64,000 nucleotides of DNA from Candidatus Omnitrophota bacterium. Lineage in GTDB: Bacteria; Omnitrophota; Gorgyraeia; Pluralincolimonadales; Pluralincolimonadaceae. The notes beneath the pieces were generated by a model, which searched no databases, was not told the origin of the DNA, and saw nothing but the letters and a program-made list of their open reading frames with translations. The DNA is taken from the NCBI GenBank assembly GCA_003141835.1, contig PLNR01000006.1, forward strand, positions 142,558-206,557, in the 5' to 3' direction. Every line of letters begins with the position of its first letter. Within the stretch, counting starts at the first letter, position 1. The position numbers were made by a program, and so were the translations under genes. Of the stretch, positions 1,409 through 27,433 are shown one piece after another.

Positions 1409-1419
1409 TTTCCTTTCCT

Positions 1420-1446
1420 GGGGGACGTCCCATTGGGGGACACCCT
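1420..1446. repeat. 27-bp REP-like palindromic element, copy 1 (GGGGGACGTCCCATTGGGGGACACCC; inverted relative to copies 3 and 4)
   Basis: Near-identical to the elements at 23422-23448 and 26467-26493. Contains the palindromic GGGACGTCCC half-site. Intergenic, between the phosphorylase-like start and the TrpB2 stop. Confidence 0.7.
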
Positions 1447-1447
1447 A

Positions 1448-2797
1448 TTATGCGTTGCCGATCTCCGGTATTTTCTTTATCGCCTCTTTTATCTTCTCTT
1501 CCGGATGCTCATAGTCCTCGAGCTTTCCGTCGAGGTACGCGTCGTATGCGGAGAGGTCGAAGTGGCCGTGTCCGCTGTAATTGAAGACGATGCATTTGCC
1601 GTCGTTCTTCTTCGCCTCGTCGATGACGCAGCGTATCGCGTGCGCCGTTTCGGGAGCAGGCAGGAATCCTTCTATTCTCGCCCACATCACAGCCGCCTCA
1701 AAGACCGGGTTCTGCGAATACGCCCTCGCCTCTATCACTTTCTTCTTCGCCAACAACGACACCTCAGGCGCCATGCCGTGATACCTCAACCCCCCTGCGT
1801 GTATCCCGGCCGGCACGAAACTGTGGCCCAGCGTGTACATCTTCACAAGCGGCGTAAGTTTCCCGGTATCGCCGAAATCGTACAGGTATTCGCCCTTCGT
1901 CAACGTCGGGCAGGCGGTCGGCTCGACCGCGATGAACTTTATATCCTTCCCCTTTAATTTATCCGGCACGAACGGGAACGTGAACCCGGCGAAATTGCTG
2001 CCGCCGCCGACGCACGCTATCATCGTGTCCGGCTTCTCGCCTATCATCTCGAGTTGTTTCTTCGTCTCGAGCCCGATGACAGACTGGTGCGTAAGCACGT
2101 GGTTTAATACGCTGCCGAGGGAATATTTAGTGTCGTCGTGGATGGCCGCGTCCTCGACCGCCTCTGAGATCGCGATGCCTAAACTGCCCGGCGTCTCCGG
2201 GTCATCGGCCAGAGCCTGCCTTCCGGAATTGGTCTTCGTTGTCGGAGACGGGAATATTTCCGCGCCCCAGACGCGCATCAAGGATTTGCGGTAAGGCTTC
2301 TGGTAATAGCTCGCCTTGACCATATAGACCGTGCATTTCAGGCCAAGGATATTGCAGGCGAACGATAACGCCGAACCCCATTGCCCAGCGCCTGTTTCGG
2401 TCGCTATGCGTTTTACGCCTTCCTTTTTATTGTAATATGCCTGGGCGATGGCCGTGTTCAATTTGTGGCTGCCGGCAGGCGAGGCGCTTTCATCTTTATA
2501 ATAAATGCGGCAATTCGTTTTCAGGGCCTTCTCGAGGCGGACCGCCCTCTTGAGAGGCGTCGGCCTGTAAATTTTATATACATCAAGGACTTCGTCGGGG
2601 ATATCTATCCAGCGCTGCTGGCTCATCTCCTGCTCAATCAACGCCATCGGGAATATCGGCGCCAGGTCGGCTGGCCCGAGCGGTTTCCCGGTCCCGGGAT
2701 TTAAAGGCGGGGGCAATTGTTCGGGCAAGTCAGGGGCAATGTTATACCAGGCTTTGGGGATGTCGTTCAACGACAAGATAACTCTGTCCTTGTCCAT
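1448..2797 (-). CDS. trpB: tryptophan synthase beta chain, TrpB2-type (PLP-dependent)
   Basis: 449-aa ORF. It has the long N-terminal extension typical of TrpB2 and PLP-fold motifs (HKLN, GGGSN); GAG RBS-like context. No trpA adjacent. Confidence 0.8.
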
Positions 2798-12965: not shown

Positions 12966-12992
12966 TTTAGGTTTCCTGCGAACCTTTTATTT

Positions 12993-13053
12993 GGGGACAC
13001 TCTGCAGCCTGTCCCTTTTTGACACGCCCCTATTACCTACTATTACCTATTAC
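12993..13053. repeat. island repeat unit U1 (GGGGACAC...TGTCCCTTTTTGACACGCCCC plus TATTACC tandem)
   Basis: Shares the core GGGGMSKTKTCAAAAAGGGACA (reverse orientation) with U2, U3 and the helicase-gene element. It sits between the Dam-like MTase stop and the 281-aa gene start. Confidence 0.5.
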
Positions 13054-15500: not shown

Positions 15501-15514
15501 GCTATGGGAACTTC

Positions 15515-15575
15515 GGGGACGTGTCATTTTGGGGCACCCTGCAATCTATTTCTTTTTGACACGTCACTAATATTT
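15515..15575. repeat. island repeat unit U3 (bounded by 9-bp inverted repeat GACGTGTCA / TGACACGTC)
   Basis: GGGGACGTGTCATTTTGGGGCACCCTGCAATCTATTTCTTTTTGACACGTCAC. Confidence 0.45.
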
Positions 15576-18373: not shown

Positions 18374-19516
18374 CTAAACCTTTTCGTGGCTAAATTGGCG
18401 CAGATAATCACTGTACATAAACTTGCGATTGCGCTCTTTTCCGGTTATTTCATATAATATGTCTGCCTTAACAAACTTTTCTATCAACTGAAGGATATTC
18501 GCTTTAGAGGATATTCCGGTAATCCGCGAGGCAATCCCTGAATCTACTATAGGGGTTGAATATAGTTTGTTTAACAGTTTTAAGGCTGTTGCGGAATTTC
18601 TGCCCATGCCGGAAACCTTCCTGATGTGCTCCTCCCTTAATTTTGTGATCTTTTGGGCAGTTATCACGGCTTCCTCAGAAACTTCGCGTACGCCTACAAG
18701 AAAATATTTTAGCCAATCTTCTATACCTTTATTAAACCTATATCCGTTTAATTTATCGTAATAATTTGTACGGTGTTTTTTAAAATACTCCGAAATATAC
18801 AAAAGTGGCCGGGACAGCACCTGTTCTTTGTAAAGATAAAAAGTAATCAAGAGTCTCCCCATCCTTCCGTTACCGTCAAGGAACGGATGGATGGTTTCAA
18901 ATTGAGCGTGTATAATGCCGGCTTTTATTAAAGGCGGAAGTTTCGTGGTTTCATCGTGCAAGAACTTTTCCAGATCAGACAAAGATTCATGCATTTGGTG
19001 AGCGGGCGGAGGAACAAAAAAAGCTGTTTCTATAGTAGGGCCTCCTATCCAATTTTGGGAAGTCCTGAATTCCCCCGGATTTCTGTGCTGCCCACGCACT
19101 CCTTTAAGCAAGGCGGAATGCATTTCTCTTATCAAACGCCAGGAGAGAGGAAAGGTCTTTAGCCTTTCTATGCCATGATCCATTGCGGTTATGTAGTTTT
19201 TTATCTCATCGACATCCGAAGGGGAATCCTTATCCTTTAGTTTCGCCTCCGCTTTTATGTAATCGATGAATGTCGCCTGAGTACCTTCTATCTGGCTTGA
19301 TAACGCGGCTTCTTTCGTAACGTACATGTAGATAAAGAAATTAACGTCGGGGACAAGCTGGTCTATGGCATTGAGACTACCTATAGCGCGATCTGCCTTT
19401 GAGAGAAGCATGATTAAATTGTCATCCCAGTTTATGAGATGCTCAGGTGGAAATTTTGCCGGTATAAACGCCTTGTAACCTGTAGGTTGCTGTTGATAAA
19501 AACCTATTTTTCCCAT
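18374..19516 (-). CDS. Fic family protein (probable AMPylase) with C-terminal winged-helix
   Basis: Canonical Fic motif HPFLDGNGRMGR within a 380-aa ORF. Confidence 0.85.
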   Translation of the reverse strand: MGKIGFYQQQPTGYKAFIPAKFPPEHLINWDDNLIMLLSKADRAIGSLNAIDQLVPDVNFFIYMYVTKEAALSSQIEGTQATFIDYIKAEAKLKDKDSPSDVDEIKNYITAMDHGIERLKTFPLSWRLIREMHSALLKGVRGQHRNPGEFRTSQNWIGGPTIETAFFVPPPAHQMHESLSDLEKFLHDETTKLPPLIKAGIIHAQFETIHPFLDGNGRMGRLLITFYLYKEQVLSRPLLYISEYFKKHRTNYYDKLNGYRFNKGIEDWLKYFLVGVREVSEEAVITAQKITKLREEHIRKVSGMGRNSATALKLLNKLYSTPIVDSGIASRITGISSKANILQLIEKFVKADILYEITGKERNRKFMYSDYLRQFSHEKV

Positions 19517-19688
19517 TTCATCCTCCCAGAACTACTGTTTTGGTTAGTTCTGGATAAGTAGTATATCCGATACTTACGCAATATGCAAGTTTTAATTTCA
19601 ATGATTCCAACGTGTTAGAGTAGCTCAATAATTAGTTCTGGTTAATGCCATTATCCAGAACTTGATATTTTCTAAGTTCTGGCTACAG

Positions 19689-22600
19689 TTACCCCCAGCA
19701 GATATCGTAAAAATCGCATTTATTGTTGCCCTGGCCGCATTTGCCGGGTTTCTCGTCGATCTCCGGCAGTTTGGCGAAGTCGAGCTTCCTGATGCGGCGG
19801 CTAACGTCCTTTATGAGCGACTCGAGCTCGGCGACCATATCCTCGGTCAGCTCGACCTTCTTCTTGACGAATTCGCCTTCCTTGAGGTCGTGCTTTATGA
19901 CCGTCTCTTTAGCCGGGTCGAGGAAGACGAGCACCCCCTCCTTTACCTTGCGGCCCTGTGATTCCTTCTTGTCCCTGTCGAAGAGGAGTTTATACGCGAT
20001 GAGCTGGCGCAGGTACCCCTCGAACTCATCACTTGATACCGGTATCTTTTTCGCGAGAGAATTATTGATCCCTTTGACATGTCTATCCGGTTCACCCGTT
20101 TTATAATCTATCACACGAACGGCGGCGGTGCCCGCGGGTTCGGTTTTATCATATTTTCCGGTAAATTTCAGGTCGTCATCGAGCATGACCATCAGGTTTT
20201 TCTCGAGGCCGAGCGGCTTTATCGGCGCGCGTGATTCTTCCTTGAACCAGGCCTTGAACGTCTCGACCTGGCGCAGGCAGGCGGTCTTTATCGCCGCTTC
20301 CGGGGCTTCGTGGCTTAATTCCCTGGTGAACGCCTCCTTGAAGAACGCGAAATCCGGGAATTTGCCGGTCTTCATGAATTTATCATAGGTATTTTCCAGC
20401 GCCTTGTGGGTGCAGTTACCGAAGACGAGCGGCTGCTTCTTGCCCGACGGCAGCATCAGGGCGTTATCATAGAGATATTTGCGCGGGCAATTTATATAAT
20501 TGTTGAGCGATGTGGGGTTGAGCGAGATGCCGGCGACGAGGTCTTTCAATATCTTGTCGGTGCCGATGAACGGGTCTTCTGCGTCGGTTATCTCGAGCGC
20601 GGCTTTGAGCAGGTCCTCTTCTTTATTTGCGGAGGCCTCCCCATCGGCCACGCCCGTAAGATACGAGCTCGGGATCGCGCTCTCGGTCGGGCTGGCGGTG
20701 TAGATGAGGTTCGCCTTGGCGCGCGTCGAGGCGACGTAGAACAGGCGCGTCTCGTCGTAATAATCGAGTTGCTTTAAGATATCCTTGTCGGGCGGGATCT
20801 CCTTCGACTTGTAGACCTCGGGCGGGAGCGGGATCGAGACGCCCTGCGGCCGCTTCGGCCAGCGCTTCTTTTCGAGGCAGAACGGGATGAATACCGTGTG
20901 GAATTCGAGGCCTTTCGAGCCGTGGGCCGTGTAGATGCGCACGCCTTCCTGCGTGGCCGTGACGAGCTCGCCCTTCAGGGACATGCCGTGGGCCTTGCGG
21001 GTCTCGAGCTCATCGATGAATTCCTTGAGCGTGATGCCCGGGCGCGCGATGTCGGATTCCTTGACCATGTTGACGAATGACGTTAGCGCGCGCAGGTCGC
21101 GGATGCGCAGGAGATCATTATCATCATATTTATCCAAGATGAACTTCAAAACCCCTGCATCTTTGATAAATTGCATCAAAATTGCATGCACTGGTCTACT
21201 TTCGGCTTCAAAAAGCAAAGCAGAAATCGAAGCTAAATTTGGGGACGTTTCAAAAAGGGACACTTCACCCACTGAAGTATTAGCAGGGGTGAAATGTAAC
21301 CCTTTTTGAAACGTCCCCAAGCGCATTAGCTCGCTGAACATCGAAATCGTCGGGGCTTCGCCCTTCTTGCGCTGGTCATATTTTTTCACCCGGACTTCGG
21401 CGATGAAGCGCAGGACGTCGCTCATCGGGATGTGCATGTAATCGGCGGTCAAAATGCGGTAGAGATAGGCGTCTTTCTGCTCTATATCGATGTCGGGCGT
21501 GTGCGCGAAATAGAGCACGTCGAGCATCTGGCGGACGCGCTTCTCGCCGGCGATGTCCTCCTTGCCGTCGGTTGCGTACGGGATACCGGCGCGCAGGAAA
21601 GTGTCGACTATTTTGAGGATATCGTCGCGCTGGCGCACGAGGACGGCGACTTCATCAAGCGGGACCTCCTCCTTCTTCGCGATCTCCTTTATGCGGCGCG
21701 CGATAAAGAGCAACTCCTCGGTCTCGGTCGTGAATTCGTCATATTCGATGGTCTTTTTCTTGAAATCTGTCTCCGGCGCGAGTTCTTTGGCGTGGACGCG
21801 CTCTTTAACCGGAAGGTTATTTATTATGCGGCCTGCGAGCGAGATTATCTCTTTTGTCGAGCGGTAGTTCTTTTCGAGCGGGATCTCTTTTAATTTCGGA
21901 AATCTCTTCTTTAGTTCGCGGAAATTCGCTACCGACGCCCCCTGGAACCTAAAAATAGATTGGTCGTCGTCCCCTACGCAGCAAATATTCGTGCCGCCTA
22001 GCTCGAATAATAAGTCCATCTGCGCGCCGTTGGTGTCCTGGAACTCATCAACCATGATGTAGGTGTACTGCTTCTGGAGGGCGGATTTGAGCTCCGGTTC
22101 ATTGCGGATCGCCTCGACCGCGAAAAGTATCATATCATCGTAATCGTAGCGGCCCCGGTCATCGAAAAGTGCCTTATTTTTGCCCGCTTTGTACTCTTCA
22201 TACAGCTTATATACGGTGGCGAGGGCCTTGAGACGTTCTATGTGCTTTTCTTCAATGTAGGCGCCGTCAGGCTCGGTTTTTTCTATTATCTCAGCGAACT
22301 GCGCCGGCGAAACACCTTCGCGCTTAAGCTCGGTTATCCGCTGGCTTATCTCGCGCTCAAAAGCGTACGGCGCGCGGAACGGCCGGATCTTATCGATGCC
22401 GTCAGTATTATCCAAAATATATTCGAGGAGCTTTATCTGCTCGATATCGGTTATCTGGACGCGTTCCTGGATGTATTCGGCCGCCTCTTCGGACTCCAAC
22501 ACGACAGAATTCGCGAAACTGTGGAATGTCGCCGTTTCAATATTGTAAGCGGCGGCTCCAAGGAGTTTCACGAGGCGCTCTTTCATCGCCTTCGCGGCGG

Positions 22601-22775
22601 CATTCGTGTATGTTAGGATGAGGATATTCTCGGGGCGGGCCTTCTTTGCCTTAATTATGTTCGCCGCGCGGACGGAAAGCAGCTCGGTCTTGCCTGTTCC
22701 GGGTCCGGCTAGGACTAAAACGGGGCCATCGAGGGTCTCGGCGGCTAATTTTTGCTTGGTATTCAGATTGATCAT
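19689..22775 (-). CDS. UvrD/PcrA-like SF1 helicase fused to a C-terminal PD-(D/E)XK Cas4/AddB-like nuclease with Cys cluster
   Basis: Walker A LAGPGTGKT and helicase motifs in the N-terminal 650 aa. C-terminal segment VIDYKTGEPDR...QLIAYKLL plus Cys residues (NCPRKY...CGQGNNKCDFYDIC). Start taken at MINLN (ATG 22775). The track ORF extends to 22823. Confidence 0.8.
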   Translation of the reverse strand: MINLNTKQKLAAETLDGPVLVLAGPGTGKTELLSVRAANIIKAKKARPENILILTYTNAAAKAMKERLVKLLGAAAYNIETATFHSFANSVVLESEEAAEYIQERVQITDIEQIKLLEYILDNTDGIDKIRPFRAPYAFEREISQRITELKREGVSPAQFAEIIEKTEPDGAYIEEKHIERLKALATVYKLYEEYKAGKNKALFDDRGRYDYDDMILFAVEAIRNEPELKSALQKQYTYIMVDEFQDTNGAQMDLLFELGGTNICCVGDDDQSIFRFQGASVANFRELKKRFPKLKEIPLEKNYRSTKEIISLAGRIINNLPVKERVHAKELAPETDFKKKTIEYDEFTTETEELLFIARRIKEIAKKEEVPLDEVAVLVRQRDDILKIVDTFLRAGIPYATDGKEDIAGEKRVRQMLDVLYFAHTPDIDIEQKDAYLYRILTADYMHIPMSDVLRFIAEVRVKKYDQRKKGEAPTISMFSELMRLGTFQKGLHFTPANTSVGEVSLFETSPNLASISALLFEAESRPVHAILMQFIKDAGVLKFILDKYDDNDLLRIRDLRALTSFVNMVKESDIARPGITLKEFIDELETRKAHGMSLKGELVTATQEGVRIYTAHGSKGLEFHTVFIPFCLEKKRWPKRPQGVSIPLPPEVYKSKEIPPDKDILKQLDYYDETRLFYVASTRAKANLIYTASPTESAIPSSYLTGVADGEASANKEEDLLKAALEITDAEDPFIGTDKILKDLVAGISLNPTSLNNYINCPRKYLYDNALMLPSGKKQPLVFGNCTHKALENTYDKFMKTGKFPDFAFFKEAFTRELSHEAPEAAIKTACLRQVETFKAWFKEESRAPIKPLGLEKNLMVMLDDDLKFTGKYDKTEPAGTAAVRVIDYKTGEPDRHVKGINNSLAKKIPVSSDEFEGYLRQLIAYKLLFDRDKKESQGRKVKEGVLVFLDPAKETVIKHDLKEGEFVKKKVELTEDMVAELESLIKDVSRRIRKLDFAKLPEIDEKPGKCGQGNNKCDFYDICWG
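21241..21319. mobile_element. MITE-like structured element inside the helicase-nuclease CDS (perfect 19-bp terminal inverted repeats GGGGACGTTTCAAAAAGGG / CCCTTTTTGAAACGTCCCC plus nested hairpin)
   Basis: It is embedded in an AT-rich stretch of about 200 bp (21125-21330) within an otherwise GC-rich gene. The reading frame is maintained. Its core is related to the island repeats U1-U3. Confidence 0.45.
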
Positions 22776-22822
22776 ATTTATGCTATAATTGGATGGTATA
22801 ATTATACCCCAAGGAGGACGCA
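22776..22822. promoter_or_regulatory. divergent promoter region (two TATAAT boxes, RBS AAGGAGGA for the plus-strand gene)
   Basis: TATAAT at 22784-22789 and 22797-22802. AAGGAGGA 5 nt upstream of ATG 22823. Confidence 0.35.
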
Positions 22823-23155
22823 ATGAAAACTGCTATTATTATGTTATCTGTTCTCTCTTTTACCCTTTTCGTGAGCCCGGCAACGGTCAAGGCCGAAGGC
22901 ACCAGCGGCACGCTCGCCGCGCAGGTAGATACGGTCACTGTGGCACAGACCGAGGGCGAGGATTCCACCGTTTCAGTTGTAGATGAATCCGGCGTCACGA
23001 TACTCTTTTATGTGACAGCCGCAACCGTCATCTCCGGCCCGATAGGCGAGCCGATAAGCCTCGGCAATATCAACCAGAACGACCCGGTCGAGATAGAATA
23101 CGATAATCTCGAGGGCGGGGTCGGGCTGGCGAAGTCAATAAAACTAACAGAGTAA
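22823..23155 (+). CDS. small secreted protein, paralog 1 of 3 (possible OB-fold periplasmic protein)
   Basis: Signal peptide. Shares the C-terminal pattern of hydrophobic and Gly positions with 25322-25636 and 25662-26000. Confidence 0.5.
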   Translation: MKTAIIMLSVLSFTLFVSPATVKAEGTSGTLAAQVDTVTVAQTEGEDSTVSVVDESGVTILFYVTAATVISGPIGEPISLGNINQNDPVEIEYDNLEGGVGLAKSIKLTE

Positions 23156-23160
23156 ATATA

Positions 23161-23207
23161 GGGTGTCCCCCACTGAGGTGGGACCTTGCCCCAATGGGAC
23201 GTCCCCC
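23161..23207. repeat. REP-like element copy 2 (split by a 19-bp internal insert)
   Basis: GGGTGTCCCCC / ACTGAGGTGGGACCTTGCC / CCAATGGGACGTCCCCC. Confidence 0.6.
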
Positions 23208-23215
23208 AGGAAAAA

Positions 23216-23896
23216 ATGCGCATACTTGTAGTCGAAGACGAAAAAAAGATAGCAAATTTCATAAAACGCGGCCTGAAGGAAGAGGGCTACGCTGTCGACG
23301 CGGCTGAAGACGGCGAGCAGGGATATTTTATGGCCACAACGCAGGATTACGACCTCATCGTCCTCGACCTGATGCTGCCGAAGATGGATGGCCTCACCCT
23401 TTGCAGGAAGTTGCACGAAATGGGGTGTCCCCCAATGGGACGTCCCCCAGTATTGATACTCACGGCCAAGGACACGGTAAAAGACAAGGTCTCCGGCCTC
23501 GACTCCGGCGCGGACGATTACATCACCAAGCCGTTCGCTTTCGAGGAGTTCCTGGCGCGGGTGCGGGCGCTTTTGCGCAAACGCGAAGGCAGTGCGTCGA
23601 CGAAACTCACGGCCGGCGAACTCACGCTCGACCTCGTCACGCACAAGGTATCGCGCGGCGGCAAAGAGATCGAGCTTACGGCCAAGGAATACGCGCTCCT
23701 TGAATATTTCATGCGCAACGCCGGCACGTGCGTCACCAGGACGATGATATCCGAGCACGTCTGGGACATGAATTTCGATAGTTTTACAAACGTCATAGAC
23801 GTCTATGTGAACTATCTACGAAAAAAACTGGACAACGGCCCCGGCAAAAAACTCATCCAGACCGTCCGCGGCAGGGGTTATATCCTCAAAGGTTAA
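23216..23896 (+). CDS. OmpR-family response regulator
   Basis: Receiver domain (VVEDE, D..LDLMLP, LTAKD) plus winged-helix effector (LTAKEYALLEYF...RTVRGRGY). Confidence 0.85.
   Translation: MRILVVEDEKKIANFIKRGLKEEGYAVDAAEDGEQGYFMATTQDYDLIVLDLMLPKMDGLTLCRKLHEMGCPPMGRPPVLILTAKDTVKDKVSGLDSGADDYITKPFAFEEFLARVRALLRKREGSASTKLTAGELTLDLVTHKVSRGGKEIELTAKEYALLEYFMRNAGTCVTRTMISEHVWDMNFDSFTNVIDVYVNYLRKKLDNGPGKKLIQTVRGRGYILKG
23422..23448. repeat. REP-like element copy 3, inside the response-regulator CDS (encodes GCPPMGRPP in frame)
   Basis: GGGGTGTCCCCCAATGGGACGTCCCCC. Confidence 0.7.
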
Positions 23897-26451: not shown

Positions 26452-26466
26452 GTTTTCCTCCGGAAT

Positions 26467-26493
26467 GGGGTGTCCCCCAATGGGACGTCCCCT
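26467..26493. repeat. REP-like element copy 4 (intergenic)
   Basis: GGGGTGTCCCCCAATGGGACGTCCCC, between the OsmC start and the YhaM-like stop. Confidence 0.7.
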
Positions 26494-27433
26494 AGGTTTT
26501 TTTGAGAAGATATTTGCGGCCTTTGAGGCTTACATACGAGGACCAGACCTTGTCTCCGCCGGACTGCTGGACGATGATCTCCTTGACCGCGTTCGCCTGC
26601 GAGACGAGCTCGTCGGCCTGGTAGACGATCGTCGCCTCGAGCGTCTTCGGGAGTATCGGCGACTGCTGTTCGTATTCGCCGTGGTGGCTTAAGATGATAT
26701 GCTTGAGGCGCAGGGCGAGGTCCTTCGGGAAGTTCTTGATATTTTTTATCTTCTCGGAGACCATCTCGTAGCCGAGCGTCAGGTGGCCGATCAGCCCGCC
26801 GTCGACCGTGTATTCGAAGGTGCTGATGTCGAGCTCGACGGTCTTGCCGATGTCGTGGGCGAACGCGCCGATCATCACGATGTCGCGGTCGGCGTCGGGA
26901 TAAAGGTCGCAGACCACGCCGCTGATGCGCATCACCTCGTACGTGTGCTCCATCAGCCCGCCGATGTAGGCGTTGTGCCAATTCTGGGCGCCGGGCGATT
27001 TTTTGAATTTCGCCATCAGTTCGTCATCGGAGAGGAACTCCTTCGCCAGCGCCGCGAGCCATTTTTCGGAGATCCCGTCAAGTGCCTCTTTGATATTCTT
27101 GAATATCTCTTCGGGCTTTTCGACGGAGCGGACGAGCTCCTCGAATTTGTATTCTTTCGGCTCGGCAAGGCGTATCTGGTCGACGCGTATCTGCAGGTCG
27201 CCCTTGAATGAATCGACGCGGCCGTTGACGAAGACCGCTTCGCCTGTCGCGACCATTTCGTCGGCGGCCCCGGCATTCTCCCAGACCTTCGCTTCCATCC
27301 GGCCGGTCTTATCCGAGAGCGTTAATTTAAGGAACGGCTTTCCGCCTTGCGTGAGCGCAAGTTCTTTCTTCTTGAGGAAATACACGTCCTCGATCGTATC
27401 GTTTGTCTTGAGGTTTTTTATGAATTTAGGCAT
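26492..27433 (-). CDS. OB-fold + HD-domain phosphohydrolase (YhaM-like 3'-5' exoribonuclease family)
   Basis: N-terminal OB-fold region then an HD-domain motif (FAHDIGK...H...D). Confidence 0.6.
   Translation of the reverse strand: MPKFIKNLKTNDTIEDVYFLKKKELALTQGGKPFLKLTLSDKTGRMEAKVWENAGAADEMVATGEAVFVNGRVDSFKGDLQIRVDQIRLAEPKEYKFEELVRSVEKPEEIFKNIKEALDGISEKWLAALAKEFLSDDELMAKFKKSPGAQNWHNAYIGGLMEHTYEVMRISGVVCDLYPDADRDIVMIGAFAHDIGKTVELDISTFEYTVDGGLIGHLTLGYEMVSEKIKNIKNFPKDLALRLKHIILSHHGEYEQQSPILPKTLEATIVYQADELVSQANAVKEIIVQQSGGDKVWSSYVSLKGRKYLLKKT

Follow-up and report, generated by a model that had tools for sequence, protein, structure and literature searches.

The window analysed here, a 64-kb stretch (64,000 nucleotides) of a contig from a Candidatus Omnitrophota bacterium to which all unlabelled coordinates refer, carries on its minus strand a helicase-nuclease gene (19689-22775) with an 82-bp hairpin at 21239-21320 that is read in frame. 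Two inverted repetitive extragenic palindromic (REP) units and a spacer make up this single long hairpin, which was recognised by its repeat, by its fold and by a motif match of both arms. Inverted REP doublets were defined as REPINs by Bertels and Rainey (PMC3116915; PMC5581495). Because the arms are units of a dispersed repeat, and because these units bracket genes for probable REP-associated tyrosine transposases (RAYTs) as an inverted pair in related genomes, we assign the helicase hairpin with good confidence to a RAYT-associated REPIN family of the Omnitrophota, and regard it as a tolerated in-frame passenger in a loop of the helicase.

Structure of the hairpin and its host gene

The host gene is intact, its open reading frame (ORF) spanning 19689-22823 on the minus strand with the real start at the ATG at 22775-22773, giving a product of 1028 amino acids. 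This is a superfamily 1 helicase of the UvrD/PcrA type with a C-terminal PD-(D/E)XK nuclease (Cas4/AddB-like and Cys-rich), as shown by matches to Pfam UvrD-helicase (9.5e-65), UvrD_C (2.2e-31) and PDDEXK_1 (2.3e-23), and its closest solved relatives are PcrA (the best, at 9e-52) and UvrD. It is identical to database protein P0001, and its named homologs come nearly all from metagenome-assembled genomes (MAGs) of Candidatus Omnitrophota.

The outer arms of the hairpin are a REP unit at 21239-21259 on the plus strand (TTGGGGACGTTTCAAAAAGGG) and an inverted REP unit at 21300-21320 on the minus strand (CCCTTTTTGAAACGTCCCCAA), complementary at all 21 positions and separated by 40 nt. A preliminary description of this DNA had reported perfect terminal inverted repeats of 19 nt; they are indeed perfect, and 19 nt is the GGGG...GGG core of a repeat of 21 nt. 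The nested hairpin which it also reported is found in the spacer (21260-21297), where an inner 11-nt stem (21260-21270 with 21287-21297, 10 of 11 pairs) encloses a 16-nt loop (21271-21286). These arms form by far the longest inverted repeat of the window, and only 0.01 occurrences of the arm 21-mer would be expected by chance. The hairpin region as RNA folds at -63.1 kcal/mol compared to -25.2 +/- 3.4 for shuffled sequences (z = -11.3, with none of 200 as good), and as DNA, over 21100-21340, at -51.7 kcal/mol (z = -8.4). According to the ortholog alignments, the linker NLASISALLF (21210-21238, minus strand) lies between the REPIN and a conserved EAExxPVH helix.

Extent of the insertion and ortholog alleles

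Alignments of first 29 and then 120 orthologs showed that the extra DNA amounts to only ~82 bp. These coincide exactly with the hairpin, running from codon L486 into the first base of codon N513, and add ~26-27 residues (translation L-GTFQKGLHFTPANTSVGEVSLFETSP) within a hypervariable linker of varying length. The preliminary description had proposed an insertion of ~200 bp and ~70 residues with the repeats as its termini, which overstated the size about 2.5-fold, since the element that the repeats delimit is 82 bp long and takes up just one end of that interval. A foreign insertion of 200 bp is ruled out, as 21105-21238 codes for helicase residues conserved in all orthologs (LLFEAESRPVHAILMQFIKDAGV...); residues from about L520 on (LLFEAESRPVHAILMQFIKDAGVLKFILDKYDD) are conserved in all of them too, with His530 invariant in 120 sequences. 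Of the rest of that description, the reading frame is indeed unbroken and the quoted peptide is the correct translation, while the ortholog comparison and empty-site search which it advised revealed a lineage-specific insertion and an empty allele. The latter is P0059 (locus L130), 90% identical, which has no hairpin and a 15-residue linker, YMAASPHKALVNLLF; the site is likewise empty in P0017 (L131), and the ancestral '..HKA' linker of the empty-site orthologs is missing in the window copy. The insert is shared, with a few substitutions, by P0029, a protein of 95% identity from another sample, and at a further locus (L001) an identical 71-nt REPIN occurs twice in one helicase gene, at this site and in a second loop that directly precedes CCVGDDDQ. 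The empty sites, the shared insert and the twin REPIN together support mobility of the element.

The helicase on the contig encoding P0029 (ENA ERZ1426509) is called as two ORFs, of 668 and then 271 amino acids with a 108-nt gap between them, owing either to an assembly error or to a frameshift or stop at a good distance downstream from the REPIN.

An assembly artefact, with the palindrome arising from mis-joined reads, had also been considered in the preliminary description, and assembler errors can create perfect palindromes in a metagenomic source such as this one. However, the Logan assembly of SRR7151659 is identical to the window over 19189-23275 (4087 bp), the exact host protein is recorded on 3-4 contigs from NCBI, ENA and Logan, P0029 from the other sample has the same insert, and the element family is present at the site in many independent assemblies, leaving almost no probability for an artefact.

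An AlphaFold model built on the 29-sequence alignment, which is of mediocre quality (mean predicted local distance difference test score [pLDDT] 71, predicted template modelling score 0.38), gave pLDDT <50 for residues 488-510, as coil between helices at 479-488 and 512-521. The inserted residues are thus predicted to form an unstructured loop between two helices, in agreement with the earlier suggestion of an insert tolerated in a helicase loop. The ribosome would read through the element and add ~26 residues of disordered loop, and the copy would survive because the net change keeps the frame, brings no stop codon and adds only disordered sequence; it is most likely a tolerated passenger without a function of its own.

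The preliminary description placed the insertion in an AT-rich stretch of a 60%-GC gene. GC does fall, to 0.39-0.46 over about 21100-21350, but the gene is 54% GC overall and reaches 59-67% only in the immediate flanks of that stretch. Beside the element, the AT-shifted patch at 21105-21209 on the minus strand (E523 to about L557; GC 0.39, third-codon-position GC [GC3] 0.40) is protein-conserved coding sequence that belongs to the helicase and not to an insertion. Over these 35 codons, 3' of the element, orthologs have a GC of 0.45-0.55 and a GC3 of 0.57-0.83, and the differences lie mainly at synonymous sites (71-83% identity compared to 90-96% in the next 65 codons); the window patch was the most AT-shifted and the most divergent among 12 orthologs compared. 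Moreover, the 'CAAAAA' subtype of the REP unit is elsewhere characteristic of genomes with 38-43% GC; just one further copy was found in a locus of at least 50% GC, and this too is at the helicase site, in L007. The AT shift and the low-GC subtype suggest import from a lineage of lower GC by way of a short recombination tract. Against this, every ortholog has its least conserved stretch in these 35 codons (mean identity 0.78-0.85), and the 0.76 of the window is only the extreme of a continuum; the idea of a clean recombination tract was downgraded on this ground. Recombinational import of the patch is plausible, its chances being even at best, and the helicase copy of the REPIN would have arrived either by direct insertion or on such a short tract from a lower-GC relative.

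A dispersed repeat family associated with transposase genes

Each arm of the hairpin is one unit of a dispersed repeat, GGGGACGTnnCAnnnnGGGACAC, of ~25-30 nt. The first arm contains GGGGACGTTTCAAAAAGGGACAC, starting at 21241, and is found by nhmmer with E = 1.2e-7; the same program also finds the second arm. Within the hairpin the motif matches at 21241-21263 (+) without a mismatch and at 21296-21318 (-) with 2. Six matches to the unit motif were found in the window compared to 0.15 expected, and eight occurrences of GGGGACGT compared to 1.7 expected, while nhmmer detected seven REP loci, five of them in short intergenic gaps.

A scan of public genomes, for which one genome per species was taken, showed the family to be widespread in the phylum: among the matches listed there were more than 114 stretches with the unit motif, nearly all in Omnitrophota MAGs, with the rare stretches from elsewhere looking like chance matches (mostly in high-GC genomes), and dozens of inverted unit pairs of 58-164 nt. 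Only two matches to the unit were found in viral contigs, and so there is no sign of phage carriage. Full hairpins were mostly outside genes, with 5 of 36 in long open frames at the 114 related loci compared to 73% of random intervals. Counts of long stop-free frames give only an upper bound for genic copies, many of the frames obtained for solo units being spurious. Of six canonical units, five form a small imperfect stem (-6.5 to -8.8 kcal/mol, z -2.1 to -2.7), the sixth, at 1417-1449 of the window, having a z of only -1.2.

Three long REPINs of 152-164 nt (L019 185-336, L039 1075-1238 and L085 6982-7138) carry a further palindrome (GTAGCCCAGGC..CTGCCTACCTGC..) inside the spacer and look like composites, or like one hairpin element inserted into another.

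The link to a transposase comes from the genes that these units flank. ORFs of 196-202 amino acids adjoin units at L024 and L076 (e.g. L076 6751-7341) and match Pfam Y1_Tnp (2e-16 and 2.5e-20), and their translations show RYIERNP as well as an H-x-H motif (NHIHLL / NHFHLL). In NCBIfam they match best to REP-associated tyrosine transposase (NF047646; 77.7 and 72.3 bits), with only 20-32 bits for IS200. A tblastn search found a RAYT-like ORF beside a unit in ten motif loci, and in all eight RAYT loci with both flanks available the gene is preceded by a unit at a distance of 80-110 nt and followed, within ~45 nt of the stop codon, by an inverted one. Unit subtypes track RAYT clades and genome GC. 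In L062 and L001 the inner end of the unit is directly adjoined by the tetranucleotide GTAG, which beside the palindrome is a feature of classical E. coli-type REPs; ATAG or TTAG takes its place in other subfamilies, some of which, like the helicase copy, have no such tetranucleotide. By analogy with known RAYT and IS200/IS605 enzymes, the RAYT, a single-domain HUH/Y1 tyrosine transposase of the IS200 superfamily, would spread the repeat family by recognising, cutting and rejoining the units as single-stranded DNA hairpins, the doublet being the unit that would spread.

The preliminary description spoke of an in-frame miniature inverted-repeat transposable element (MITE) or mini-insertion, and was right in so far as this is a small mobile palindromic element, but REPIN is a better name for it than classical MITE. 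A classical MITE would derive from a DDE insertion sequence (for example of the TA-duplicating IS630/Tc1 kind) and be mobilised in trans, not by a RAYT. The small size and terminal inverted repeats would suit such an origin, as would the enrichment of TA at the flanks of 37 full elements (15 left and 11 right, against a background of 5.7%). However, the same dinucleotide stands on both sides in only 6 of the 37, and therefore a TA target duplication is not evident; the helicase copy lacks TA flanks, the only transposase found beside the units is the Y1/RAYT gene (10 loci), and no DDE gene is bounded by these repeats in L024 or L076, the two widely spaced pairs inspected. We therefore consider a classical MITE very unlikely.

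Several observations weigh against the assignment of the helicase hairpin to a RAYT-associated REPIN family in a helicase loop. No second copy of its exact arm or 19-mer was found in the window (allowing up to 3 mismatches) or in 132 other loci, and its membership of the family became apparent only from the ortholog comparison and a relaxed pattern. The units of the helicase copy lack the intra-unit stem, the arm alone giving no fold (-1.5 kcal/mol, z = +1.0), because GTCCC of the common CCCAAAAA subtype has become GTTTC in both arms, which are still perfectly complementary to each other. The RAYT candidates score just under the curated NCBIfam cut-off of 80 bits, and no RAYT gene was found by tblastn within the 64-kb window, so the transposase link rests on related genomes. 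As REPINs are extragenic by definition, the helicase copy is also atypical in its position. Lastly, the insertion falls between segments aligned to PcrA residues 10-410 and 511-578, and so by the PcrA domain limits is probably in the helical 2B domain, a placement that depends on this alignment and on the mediocre model. The loss of the within-unit stem from both arms also means that the helicase REPIN is probably immobile, and it may no longer be a transposase substrate.

Other copies in the window

Two REP units lie at a response-regulator gene. One, on the minus strand at 23157-23207 (...GGGACGTCCCCCAGGAAAAAATG), is split by a ~20-nt insert and ends 8 nt before the ATG (23216) of this OmpR-type gene (23216-23896, plus strand), and so overlaps the expected ribosome-binding region. 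The other, a solo unit at 23419-23449 (minus strand), is the second in-frame REP of the same 64 kb; it is read as the peptide GCPPMGRPP in the alpha3-beta4 loop, which is 4 residues longer than that of the Thermotoga DrrD structure (1kgs), exactly at the REP. The remaining loci are intergenic: solo units between two minus-strand genes at 1419-1449 (plus strand, GGGGACGTCCCATTGGGGGACACCC) and, also between two minus-strand genes, at 26464-26494 (minus strand), a degenerate small REP pair at 12989-13026, and a decaying REPIN at 15513-15570 with the left arm GGGGACGTGTCATTTTGGGGCAC and a degenerate right arm. Both of these solo units lie within ~15 nt of minus-strand start codons.

Recurrent occupation of two helicase loops

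Among the 30 closest orthologs (at least 65% identity), palindrome-derived sequence was found at this site in ~20 and at a second loop in ~11, while orthologs of 62% identity or less had ordinary linkers of 23-48 amino acids, with one exception at the first site. The second site lies between helicase motifs II and III, after DLLFELGG (about 22000 in the window, where it is empty and reads LGGTNI), and is filled with REPIN-derived peptides in P0002, P0004, P0005, P0010, P0011, P0013, P0015, P0018, P0022, P0027 and P0035. REPIN peptides that are almost the same recur in helicases with only 58-71% identity to the query (P0022, P0027 and P0035), which argues for repeated recent gains and not for one ancient insertion. 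In the loci retrieved by the motif alone, five full hairpins lie in long open frames, and this helicase gene accounts for three of them. The conserved codons just downstream of the second site (GTA GGG GAC GAC) resemble the REP terminus GGGGACGT.

At the first site at least four repeat families are represented, REPINs with GGGGACGT among them, and many of the ortholog hairpins there have the common termini GGGGACGT...ACGTCCCC. Other, unrelated hairpin families at the site are those of L118 3495-3665 (GGTGACAGC...GCTGTCACC), L126/L127 3241-3381 (GGGGGCCATCC...GGATGGCCCC) and L128 58-276 (CTCTCCCC...GGGAGAGG, read as SPLP..GER..).

This pattern bears on the possibility, raised in the preliminary description as a programmed regulatory structure, that a gene-specific hairpin is selected here for tuning expression, as an RNase III site, a translational pause or a DNA cruciform, its position being kept while its sequence turns over. 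Strong hairpins (-45 to -63 kcal/mol) that differ in sequence do occupy this codon position in most close orthologs, and a perfect RNA duplex of 21 bp would be a plausible substrate for RNase III cleavage. The ortholog hairpins, however, come from the four or more dispersed families and not from one evolving structure; L007 and L119 keep only a half unit or small remnant and L130 and L131 are empty, with the protein otherwise conserved, and the more distant orthologs have their ordinary linkers. In the whole window no Rfam match reached the gathering score, the only sub-threshold ones being microRNA precursors (generic long hairpins), and a scan of 20900-21600 found no terminator or promoter. 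A regulatory hairpin is thus very improbable.

A second possibility is that selection favours REPINs at the two loops for the variation which they bring to the surface of the helicase-nuclease, for example for escape from phage-encoded inhibitors. The occupation of two loops of one gene, the share of in-frame full hairpins that fall in this gene and its variable defence-type neighbours (Fic, AbiEii, NYN, methyltransferases and an SLFN-like helicase) would all be in keeping with this, but the inserted peptides are mere translations of palindromes and are predicted to be disordered, and the pattern is explained just as well if two floppy loops tolerate insertions or if the locality is a hot spot for them. 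We regard such exaptation as unlikely. The broader proposal that the helicase is a preferred landing site, its two loops having been colonised time and again in many Omnitrophota species, either as an insertion or recombination hot spot for single-stranded DNA hairpins or because REPIN loops are selected as surface variation, has a somewhat better, though still small, chance of being correct. A tolerated passenger REPIN is the reading that we prefer for the window copy.

The genes directly 3' of the helicase vary among orthologous loci (window 18374-19516 on the minus strand, L001, L002, L118, L119 and L131) and are of defence or toxin types, namely Fic, AbiEii, NYN/YacP, DNA methyltransferases, MazG, SLFN-like helicase and AIPR, while the upstream neighbours, OsmC and an HD-domain protein, are conserved. 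The region downstream of the helicase is a variable island beside a conserved gene.

Relation to known systems and significance

Most work on REPIN-RAYT systems has been done in Proteobacteria, and the elements are regarded as strictly extragenic. The Omnitrophota family resembles the described REPIN/REP-RAYT systems (PMC5581495) in its inverted REP pair and spacer folding to one long hairpin, its many and mostly intergenic copies with singlets and decayed copies beside doublets, its Y1/HUH transposase gene flanked by the same units, and its unit subfamilies specific to a genome or lineage. It differs from them in its phylum, in a unit (GGGGACGT..GGGACAC) unrelated to proteobacterial REPs, in having the GTAG-like tetranucleotide in only some subfamilies, and in the position of the helicase copy, which lies in frame within a gene although REPINs are extragenic by definition. 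A search of the literature on Omnitrophota together with 'palindromic' found no paper describing this repeat family.

The nearest likeness for the in-frame position is with the Rickettsia palindromic elements (RPEs), which a review of MITEs citing Ogata et al. (PMC10969869) describes, in its passage on them, as in-frame palindromes of about 100-150 bp in unrelated protein genes, nearly half of the copies being genic, with encoded extra peptides judged compatible with the protein fold and no transposase known. Both are palindromic repeats in frame in proteins and translated as an extra segment, but genic copies are a small minority in the Omnitrophota and the family has a RAYT. The host phylum also differs, therefore the likeness is only one of behaviour (in-frame genic insertion), and no sequence relationship is claimed.

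The bacterial MITEs Correia, ERIC and RUP descend from DDE insertion sequences, or are assigned to them, and duplicate their target on insertion. In contrast, the Omnitrophota repeat shows no consistent duplication and its associated enzyme is a Y1 transposase. Correia, ERIC and RUP are small, non-autonomous elements with terminal inverted repeats which form RNA hairpins and occasionally fuse in frame with host ORFs (PMC10969869).

These results describe a clear REP-RAYT system in the Omnitrophota, an uncultured phylum, and indicate that REP doublets and singlets can persist in frame in conserved genes, here a helicase-nuclease and a response regulator within one 64-kb window. For annotation, palindrome-derived peptides such as GDVPFGDT...GVSPNGTSP and GTCQKGT...SQSDTSP are to be read as repeat insertions and not as protein features. 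Beside the RPEs of Rickettsia, this is a second independent example of selfish palindromes adding loop segments to proteins. A single gene struck repeatedly at the same two loops also offers a concrete hot spot for a study of insertion preference, and if the helicase should prove to be a preferred landing site, REPINs would be a recurrent generator of protein-loop novelty in the whole phylum.

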